Shown here piece by piece: positions 30,776 through 31,911 of a DNA stretch of 64,000 bases. The stretch lies in the UHGV virus genome UHGV-0171787; one strand, 5' to 3'. Both the position numbers and the translations under genes were made by a program. The notes beneath the pieces were generated by a model. That model saw nothing but the letters and a program-made list of their open reading frames with translations. It was not told where the DNA came from and made no database searches. Origin of the DNA: a virus. The stretch's first letter is position 1. Each line of letters opens with the position of its first letter.

Positions 30776-31416
30776 GCTACTAGTCCTTGTAGTTCTTCTT
30801 TATCAAAGTGCTTCTCTACCACATATTCATACAGATCTTTTAACTCTGCATAACGACGGTAGAAAGTTCCGTGTGACATACCAATAGTTTTCTGAATGTG
30901 ATCATGAGGGATACCCAAGAAAATCATTGAGAACATATTAGCTAACTTCTGAGTATCCATCGTATCACTTAAATCTTGGAAGAAGTAGAAGATACGAGAC
31001 TCCATGAAGGGGTCGCCAACAGAGTCTTGTTTATCCATAGCAATCTCTAAGGGACTGTCCACCATATCAGGGGTACGGAACATATCAGCCTCTGGAATGG
31101 AGTAGATACGACGGTCCCCTACAGTCTGCCTATTTGAACGTATAGACCAGATAATGTTCTTGACTCGATAAGTCATATGCTCTTGGTCTTTCTCATCCTC
31201 TAGGATTCTCTCATCCTGCTTAGCGAAAACAAATCTCCAAGCGTTCAAGAGCACTTCCTGTGCCACATCCTCTGCTTCATGGTAATCTCTGATATCATAT
31301 ATAAAGAACTTGTGAACCACTTTCCAGTTCACTTTATAAAACTCTTCATAATTTGCGATGTACTTAATAGGGATTCCGTGAATGCGATATCTTGTAGGTG
31401 TTGTCTTCTTCGCCAT
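30772..31416 (-). CDS. Sigma-factor-like protein (sigma70/ECF family, regions 2 and 4)
   Basis: 214 aa; [14 protein letters not shown] resembles sigma region 2, C-terminal HTH resembles region 4. Confidence 0.6.
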
Positions 31417-31676
31417 TATTCTATTCCACGCTCTTTCAGAGCTTCTAACAATCCATTGTGATTAGCAGCACATTCTGTGTACTGGTCCTGATACCACTCC
31501 AACGTAGTGGCTAGTGCCTTTCCTTGAGCACTCTCTAAAAGAGGTAGGTCAACCCTACATTCAGCTTTTAGGTTTGTTGGTAAGGGCATTGATTGCCTGC
31601 TGCTGTCGCTCATTGAACATGCGGATGTAGTCATCGCTAGCGCAGACATTATAAAAAACTGGTTTAGTTTTCTCAT
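31416..31676 (-). CDS. Candidate o-spanin (outer-membrane lipoprotein) overlapping the i-spanin gene
   Basis: First ATG in the ORF gives [26 protein letters not shown]...; signal-peptide-like with Cys at +20, Pro/Cys-containing short mature part; out-of-frame overlap with the upstream TM protein gene. Confidence 0.4.
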
Positions 31677-31911
31677 AATGCATCTCTTTATAAACCGTTT
31701 CTGTATTCTTCTTCCAGTCGGATAAACCGGTAAGAACTCTCTGAGCAACTTCATCAGCTGCCTTACTTCTTTCAATCTCTAACTCTTGTTGATGCTTCTC
31801 TCTATCAAGATTGTTACTATCTGTTCGGTATTCATTGAACTTCATACCTCCAAAGAACACGAGAGCAGAGAAGATGATAAAACCTACATTATCACTTAAT
31901 GTACTTTTCAT
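31561..31911 (-). CDS. Candidate i-spanin (N-terminal TM plus periplasmic coiled coil)
   Basis: ATG at 31911 with GGAGA SD (track start at 31935 is a GTG inside a hairpin); MKSTLSDNVGFIIFSALVFFGG TM segment then charged helical region. Confidence 0.45.
   Translation of the reverse strand: MKSTLSDNVGFIIFSALVFFGGMKFNEYRTDSNNLDREKHQQELEIERSKAADEVAQRVLTGLSDWKKNTETVYKEMHYEKTKPVFYNVCASDDYIRMFNERQQQAINALTNKPKS

Follow-up and report, generated by a model that had tools for sequence, protein, structure and literature searches.

A probable overlapped two-component spanin gene pair beside the sigma-factor gene of a phiEco32-like (Kuravirus) phage

Described spanin systems and the phage carrying the gene pair

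Spanins are the proteins with which a phage disrupts the outer membrane of the host cell at lysis, one sitting in the inner membrane (i-spanin) and the other in the outer membrane (o-spanin). The closest described systems are the spanins of phages PhiEco32, NJ01, ECBP2 and KBNP1711, which were catalogued as overlapped by Kongari et al. (2018). In that catalogue, kuravirus i-spanins were placed in the JH2 family together with those of Felix O1-like phages, whereas the kuravirus o-spanins formed a group of four, a family separate from the Felix O1 o-spanins. An i-spanin and a full-length o-spanin are annotated at the homologous position in the record of phage Paul (CPT_Paul_036/035), an o-spanin is also annotated in ShigP1, PE006 and VTCCBPA_211, and an overlapping spanin pair has been described in kuravirus ZCEC16 (PMC13417854, 2026). 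Phage lambda Rz/Rz1 resembles the pair considered here in having two components, namely, an N-terminally anchored inner-membrane protein and a small lipoprotein of the outer membrane that is read from the same DNA in the +1 frame, and in having periplasmic Cys (Kongari et al. 2018), but Rz1 is fully embedded rather than overlapped, and the lambda genes lie within the late lysis cassette. The T4 proteins PseT.3 and PseT.2 are close in size (117 and 83 aa versus 116 and 86 aa in the present pair), and the T4 o-spanin carries two periplasmic Cys (Kongari et al. 2018); unlike in the present pair, the T4 genes are separated and the T4 i-spanin has no Cys, and sequence similarity of PseT.3/PseT.2 to the present pair was not detected.

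The DNA analyzed, hereafter the window, was a stretch of 64,000 nucleotides of the virus genome UHGV-0171787. A 2.1-kb stretch around the spanin pair matched 99 phage records, nearly all of them Escherichia and Shigella phages of the phiEco32 group (Gordonclarkvirinae, Kuravirus), with a best identity of 94–95% (XT73, Bas92-94, O18-011 and LAMP), and the lysozyme region matched these phages as well. The window belongs to a phiEco32-like (Kuravirus) podophage of E. coli. It has the kuravirus layout, with structural and late genes on the plus strand up to approximately 28.6 kb and, beyond this point, an extended cluster on the minus strand that holds genes for replication, nucleotide metabolism and regulation. 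A macro-domain (Appr-1-p) gene between the o-spanin and sigma-factor genes is absent here, as it is in LAMP and Bas92-94; therefore, the o-spanin stop codon directly overlaps the start of the sigma-factor gene, the two codons sharing one base (TAATG).

The pairs of phiEco32, NJ01, ECBP2, KBNP1711 and Paul are orthologous to that of the window (i-spanin, ~88–91% identity; o-spanin, ~94–97% identity), and the comparison with curated spanin families places the first four of them in the overlapped class. These phages share with the window the 116-nt overlap in the +1 frame, the transmembrane domain (TMD), the position of the lipobox and the place of the pair upstream of the sigma-factor region. 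The window differs from the phiEco32/Paul group in lacking the macro-domain gene and in its lipobox, which is TSAC as opposed to MSAC or LSAC. The spanin pair is already known in phiEco32-like coliphages; the finding is correct and ordinary, and it opens no new question.

Features of the two genes and their homologs

The two genes (Table 1) very probably form a two-component spanin of overlapped architecture that acts by the mechanism given below. This reading is supported by family matches, by conservation of the o-spanin start and of the Cys residues, by constraint on both frames of the overlap, by the cassette position of distant homologs, by the annotation of the Paul phage, and by the curated catalogue. 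The original prediction had assigned such an i-spanin/o-spanin architecture to two ORFs, one for a 116-aa protein with an N-terminal transmembrane segment and the other overlapping its 3′ end out of frame, with a lipoprotein-like signal that starts at the first ATG and ends in Cys and with a short body containing Pro and Cys; all of these features were recovered in the present analysis with the same coordinates, on the minus strand.

Table 1. Coordinates of the spanin genes, their elements and the associated genes in the window
Feature	Position	Strand	Basis
i-spanin gene, 116 aa	31561-31911	-	ORF and translation; PHROG 1152; kuravirus annotations
i-spanin transmembrane segment (predicted) VGFIIFSALVFFGGM, residues ~9-23	31843-31887	-	Hydropathy, KD15 maximum 2.27
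o-spanin gene, 86-aa precursor and 67-aa mature lipoprotein (predicted)	31416-31676	-	ORF; PHROG 2425; phage Paul annotation
Lipoprotein signal peptide (residues 1-19) and lipobox TSAC (31617-31628), predicted acylated Cys20	31617-31676	-	Pattern and conservation
Dual-coding overlap, 116 nt (i-spanin codons 79-116 and stop; o-spanin codons 1-38)	31561-31676	-	Nucleotide diversity
Phage ECF-like sigma-factor gene (gp36 homolog)	30772-31416	-	PHROG 1740, E = 5.1e-44
Intrinsic-terminator-like hairpin (AGCCATC-TTCG-GGTGGCT + T6), between the gp40-like gene and the i-spanin gene	31924-31947	-	Terminator scan
TAATGTATA motif, putative gp36-dependent middle promoter (gp36, phage sigma factor), ahead of the gp40-like gene, which itself comes before the spanin genes	32774-32782	-	Exact match
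Putative holin gene, 72 aa, directly upstream of the endolysin gene	13140-13358	+	PHROG 11161 'holin', E = 1.3e-40
GH24 endolysin gene, late/structural module	13386-13877	+	Pfam PF00959, E = 8.6e-32; PHROG 7 endolysin

The ATG of the i-spanin gene is preceded by GGAGA (31920-31916). The hydrophobic segment of its product is the only one, the remainder of the protein being charged and rich in Lys and Glu; for the homolog in the phage Paul record, a TMD predicted by TMpred is recorded at residues 8–23. PHROG 1152 ('Rz-like spanin') matches residues 2–116 (E = 2.8e-38), and proteins 88–95% identical to this one are labelled i-spanin or Rz-like spanin in kuravirus records. The tblastn search with the i-spanin yielded 452 phage records, among them Felix O1-like i-spanins at ~30% identity. 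The single Cys of the protein, C90, lies in the motif KPVFYNVC and was invariant in an alignment of 16 sequences. The i-spanin is a type II inner-membrane protein with a predicted periplasmic, mostly helical domain. In an AlphaFold2 model built from the 16-sequence alignment, which is of low confidence (pLDDT 59), helices span residues 3–70 and 93–111, while residues 71–92 are unstructured and yet highly conserved; modelled helices of this confidence do not establish the coiled-coil body that the original prediction had assigned to the protein.

The o-spanin ATG has AAGAG ahead of it, with a 7-nt spacer. The encoded N-terminus consists of a basic start, a hydrophobic core and the lipobox TSAC, the Cys of which opens the sequence CSMSD, so that the +2 residue is Ser. 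The lipobox pattern applied was [ILMFTV][^REKD][GAS]C; the −3 residue, Thr, departs from the strict [LVI] consensus, and relatives carry Leu or Met at this position. The mature protein contains 3 Pro and two further Cys (C40 and C69). PHROG 2425, a family with no assigned function, matches the o-spanin with E = 2.6e-26, the alignment beginning at residue 6 and covering nearly the whole profile of 86 positions. Among nine diverse homologs, residues C20, G52, C69, N74 and L76 were invariant, C40 was present in six, and the +2 residue was Ser or Thr in every aligned sequence. For the protein of phage Paul that is 94% identical to the o-spanin, the record gives an SpII cleavage site between residues 19 and 20 (LipoP score 18.03).

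As the sequence shows, the i-spanin has one N-terminal membrane anchor, the remaining chain lying outside the membrane, and the o-spanin has a signal peptide and a lipobox Cys with Ser at +2. The features by which Kongari et al. (2018) recognized spanins are found here as follows: the i-spanin is small with one N-terminal TMD; the o-spanin has an SPII-type signal and a lipobox Cys without Asp at +2, according to pattern and conservation; the o-spanin gene overlaps the i-spanin gene; and Cys residues are available in both proteins (C90 of the i-spanin, C69 of the o-spanin and, in six of the nine homologs, C40).

The search with the o-spanin in a large protein database returned only six clusters, mostly with a 57-aa form of the protein, and was useless for distant homologs; therefore, tblastn against phage genomes was used. 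The IMG/VR scan gave five loci only. Six distant homologous pairs with 28–40% identity were found, namely, in Tbat2_2, Wc4, Sasha, the Felix O1-like phage VSe102, an Erwinia Kolesnikvirus and a Peduoviridae phage. All six retain the +1 overlap at the i-spanin motif KPVFxNxC, the Cys of the i-spanin, and the lipobox and C-terminal Cys of the o-spanin. In the Felix O1-like (Felixounavirus and Kolesnikvirus), Sashavirus, Tbat2_2 and ESSI2-type pairs, both proteins are homologous to those of the window at this level of identity and are similar in size, and these pairs have in common with it the overlap at KPVFxNxC, the lipobox Cys and the C-terminal o-spanin motif xCAxxxNxL. The gp40-like and sigma-factor neighbors of the window pair are not shared with Felix O1-like and the other phages, and only the two spanin genes are common to them; the two genes therefore behave together like one mobile unit.

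With the Pfam models for lambda Rz and Rz1, neither protein gave a hit at E ≤ 0.1, NCBIfam gave none either, and a PDB sequence search with the spanins returned insignificant hits only (E ≥ 0.05). Since no sequence relationship to Rz/Rz1 was detectable, the pair is analogous to lambda Rz/Rz1 and stands outside their sequence families. The lengths of the inner-membrane components also differ, the i-spanin of the window having 116 aa and lambda Rz 153 aa.

Overlap of the genes and the start codon of the o-spanin gene

The o-spanin gene is read in the +1 frame relative to the i-spanin gene and runs 145 nt past the i-spanin stop codon, which corresponds to the 'overlapped' class. In 12 kuravirus sequences, nucleotide diversity at positions 1, 2 and 3 of the i-spanin frame was 0.065, 0.035 and 0.159, respectively, within the overlap, versus 0.115, 0.071 and 0.295 in the part of the gene coding for the i-spanin only, and at the wobble position it dropped to 0.079 across the start of the mature o-spanin. 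Both reading frames of the overlap are under constraint, with all three codon positions less variable than outside it.

The overlapping ORF might alternatively be open by chance, its lipobox being a coincidence, as out-of-frame short ORFs are common. A six-frame scan of the 64-kb window for an ATG followed by a basic N-terminus, a hydrophobic core and a lipobox gave two lipoprotein-signal hits, as opposed to 0.56 ± 0.83 in composition-shuffled windows, and the second hit begins at an internal ATG within a larger gene (an ORF of 268 aa). Against the occurrence of such a frame by chance stand the expectation of only ~0.56 hits per window, the match to the PHROG 2425 family, conservation of the protein in unrelated phages, with identities as low as 28%, and the constraint on both frames. 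Judged from these sequence comparisons, the explanation by chance has virtually no probability and is effectively refuted by the conservation data.

A further question concerns the start codon. The ATG 19 codons ahead of the lipobox Cys was present in 13 of 13 kuravirus sequences without an HNH insertion (the window and 12 loci), in which the lipobox took the forms TSAC, LSAC, MSAC, MSSC and TSSC. Stop codons in the o-spanin frame were seen in kuravirus loci only upstream of the o-spanin ATG at 31676. In phages Bas87 and EK010, a homing-endonuclease gene (HNH_3+AP2) is inserted exactly at the lipobox region, and the original signal peptide is lost or persists as a relic lacking the Cys. Both carry replacement signal peptides with a good lipobox (MLTKKKQKSCLVILLASSLMAC; ...KKKLLSCTGILLAFSLSAC), the new signal peptide being read from the 3′ end of the HNH gene in a different frame. 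A lipoprotein signal that was lost and then replaced is strong evidence that it is needed.

These observations bear on the reading of the downstream gene as one for a cytoplasmic protein of 57 aa that starts at the internal ATG at 31589 (MPLPTNL...), with the signal-like stretch as an untranslated by-product of the i-spanin gene. A CDS of 174 nt from the equivalent ATG is indeed called in LAMP, Bas94, MN05, Bas89 and MLP3, and the prevalence of the 57-aa form among the database clusters agrees with this start; however, gene callers are known to miscall overlapped o-spanins in this way (Kongari et al. 2018). Moreover, the upstream ATG and the lipobox Cys are kept in every relative, with o-frame stops confined to the region before them, the loci with an HNH replacement carry a different signal peptide with a lipobox instead, distant homologs likewise possess a signal peptide and Cys, and the PHROG 2425 profile has the length of the long form and aligns from near its N-terminus. 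The short cytoplasmic product is thus extremely improbable, and the 86-aa lipoprotein precursor is retained as the product of the gene. It should be noted that, in most kuravirus records of GenBank and most clusters of the large database, a truncated 57-aa 'hypothetical protein' takes the place of the 86-aa o-spanin lipoprotein. The practical worth of the present analysis lies in annotation, as the correct o-spanin start at 31676 should be propagated.

Genomic position, expression and proposed role in lysis

The spanin genes lie ~17.5 kb from the GH24 endolysin gene and on the opposite strand. The original prediction had pointed out a GH24 lysozyme gene on the other strand at 13386 and dispersed lysis functions, and both statements hold; this layout is a known one, a comparable separation of spanins and endolysin having been described for T4 (Kongari et al. 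2018); likewise, the spanin pairs of the Felix O1-like and Kolesnikvirus loci that were examined have no annotated lysis gene within 2 kb. The canonical lysis-cassette arrangement is not found here, the spanins being located in the middle-gene cluster and the endolysin and putative holin at 13140-13877 on the plus strand, although cassette linkage is not defining for spanins, as T4 shows (Kongari et al. 2018).

Such a position would be explained if the pair formed an envelope-spanning complex with a role other than lysis, e.g., in superinfection exclusion or in envelope remodelling in mid-infection. The location beside the sigma-factor gene instead of in a lysis cassette, the distant endolysin gene on the opposite strand and the Felix O1-like and Kolesnikvirus pairs without a nearby annotated lysis gene would agree with this. 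In addition, no experimental test of phiEco32- or Felix O1/JH2-type spanins was found in the literature searched, and the lysis function of the family is assigned by analogy. On the other hand, the homologous pairs of Sasha, Tbat2_2, Wc4 and ESSI2 follow immediately after endolysin or holin genes and close the holin–endolysin cassette, the canonical site of spanins, the six-frame scan for lipoprotein signals revealed no further protein in the 64 kb that might disrupt the outer membrane, and the T4 spanins are functional spanins while unlinked to e and t (Kongari et al. 2018). A role outside lysis is thus considered very unlikely, and the pair is regarded below as the spanins of this phage.

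By analogy with lambda and T4 and according to the Lol sorting rule, the o-spanin would be acylated at Cys20 and, after cleavage by signal peptidase II, be sorted to the outer membrane. As in the analogous systems, the C-terminal parts of the o-spanin and the i-spanin would bind each other, giving a complex that spans the periplasm. Intermolecular disulfide bonds are general for two-component spanins (Kongari et al. 2018), and the conserved Cys (C90 of the i-spanin, C69 and possibly C40 of the o-spanin) may accordingly provide disulfide-linked dimers. The complexes would remain inactive as long as the murein is whole; after its degradation by the GH24 endolysin, they would fuse the inner membrane with the outer one or disrupt both, which would complete lysis.

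The assignment of the cluster to the middle genes was made by homology to phiEco32, from statements in the papers on SU10 and YF01. By this homology, the spanin cluster would belong to the middle class and the holin and lysozyme genes to the late class. A promoter motif of the gp36 type has been described (PMC4281155, PMC12276001), and the sequence around TAATGTATA corresponds to the middle promoter of SU10 located 'between CDS37 and CDS38'. The terminator-like hairpin lies 12 nt upstream of the i-spanin start, with a fold of −15.9 kcal/mol (z = −1.97), and a terminator is annotated at the same place in the phage Paul record. By homology with phiEco32 and SU10, transcription would proceed from the gp36-type promoter through the gp40-like gene and a leaky terminator into the spanin genes, and the same transcript would also carry the sigma-factor gene. 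If the spanins are middle genes and the holin and endolysin genes are late ones, the spanins would accumulate before the late holin and endolysin. Spanin genes need not share the place or the timing of the lysis cassette, of which this pair is one more example, and their position outside it agrees with the idea that spanin complexes do no harm before the murein is broken down.

With regard to the endolysin, it is labelled as a SAR endolysin in MN05 and ZCEC16, a label unsupported by hydropathy, since the N-terminus is non-hydrophobic (KD17 maximum 0.72).

According to the original prediction, the holin was unidentified. This was correct only in part: the 13140-13358 gene, the first of the two candidates named there, is conventionally annotated as a holin gene by its PHROG 11161 match, and its homologs are named holin or putative holin in many kuravirus records, but its identity as a holin is weak, as the product has a single hydrophobic stretch, weak or marginal, and the ZCEC16 homolog is reported to have a signal peptide and no TMD (PMC13417854). 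The second candidate, at 39691-39870 on the minus strand, has two strong TMDs and belongs to a PHROG of unknown function. In a crude scan for small TMD proteins that might be holins instead, most hits were out-of-frame noise and none was decisive.

A more unusual lysis pathway of kuraviruses may be outlined from these features, although it is rather unlikely. In this scheme, the spanins would be produced in mid-infection on the sigma-factor transcript, with its overlapping stop and start codons and an attenuating terminator, the conventional holin might in reality be a secreted or signal-anchored protein, and the trigger releasing the apparently non-SAR GH24 endolysin would lie elsewhere. If this were true, no membrane component of the lysis pathway other than the spanin pair would be identified with confidence.

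Insertion of a homing-endonuclease gene between the spanin genes

In two kuravirus relatives, Bas87 and EK010, the spanin genes were split by a free-standing HNH_3+AP2 homing-endonuclease gene, with the insertion point located exactly at the lipobox of the o-spanin signal peptide and the insert flanked by a duplication of ~29 nt. At these loci, the i-spanin had acquired a new C-terminal tail. A new o-spanin signal peptide with its lipobox was encoded out of frame over the HNH gene's 3' end, and EK010 still retained a remnant of the original signal peptide that lacked the Cys. 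The overlapped architecture was therefore converted by the insertion into a separated one.

Features of the spanin region and of the window (positions in L013 and L014 are those of the relatives' spanin loci)
Feature	Location	Strand	Remark
HNH_3+AP2 insertion	L013 (Bas87, PQ850594) 187-730		homologous to window ~31590-31630
HNH_3+AP2 insertion	L014 (EK010, LC553734) 205-730		homologous to window ~31590-31630
gp40-like protein, 248 aa	31969-32715	-	PHROG 6599, function unassigned
Motif TAATGTATA	9508-9516	+	exact match
Motif TAATGTATA	24244-24252	+	exact match; overlaps ATG of 1450-aa ORF
Motif TAATGTATA	37258-37266	-	exact match
Small membrane ORF	39691-39870	-	PHROG 9296 (function unknown)
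Small membrane ORF	59289-59450	-	
Small membrane ORF	56138-56302	-	
Small membrane ORF	385-495	+	

Flanking genes and promoter motifs

A macro-domain (Appr-1-p processing) gene separated the o-spanin and sigma-factor genes in phiEco32, Paul, and SGF2, whereas it was absent from this phage, LAMP, and Bas92-94; consequently, the o-spanin stop codon here overlapped the start of the sigma-factor gene (TAATG, 31416; sigma factor at 30772-31416, -). A sigma-70-like promoter match, identified by consensus only (ATGAGA-17 nt-TATAAT, 10/12; 31648-31676, -), coincided with the o-spanin start codon and, if active, would allow the sigma-factor gene downstream to be transcribed on an RNA lacking that start. 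Upstream of the spanins, between a middle promoter and a terminator, was the gp40-like gene, in whose product no Pfam domain was found. Judging by position, its counterpart is probably CDS37 of SU10, which the SU10 paper placed among the CDSs common to all C3-morphotype phages sequenced by then. Three further exact copies of the motif of promoters read by the ECF-like sigma factor gp36 were present in the window; they may correspond to promoters listed for SU10, in which late promoters are placed between CDS10/11 and between CDS23/24, along with a further middle promoter.

Endolysin and candidate holins

Some records of relatives (MN05, ZCEC16) give the GH24 endolysin the label 'SAR-endolysin'; in the protein encoded here (13386-13877, +), the N-terminal 25 residues were not hydrophobic (KD17 maximum 0.72). 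The conventional kuravirus 'holin' (13140-13358, +) contained a single marginal hydrophobic stretch (residues ~10-28), and a signal peptide without a TMD was reported for its homolog (2026 paper, PMC13417854). In this group of phages, the genuine holin may be a protein other than the one so annotated. Four small ORFs in the window were each predicted to contain one or two strong transmembrane segments; these ORFs could represent alternative holin/antiholin candidates or exclusion proteins.
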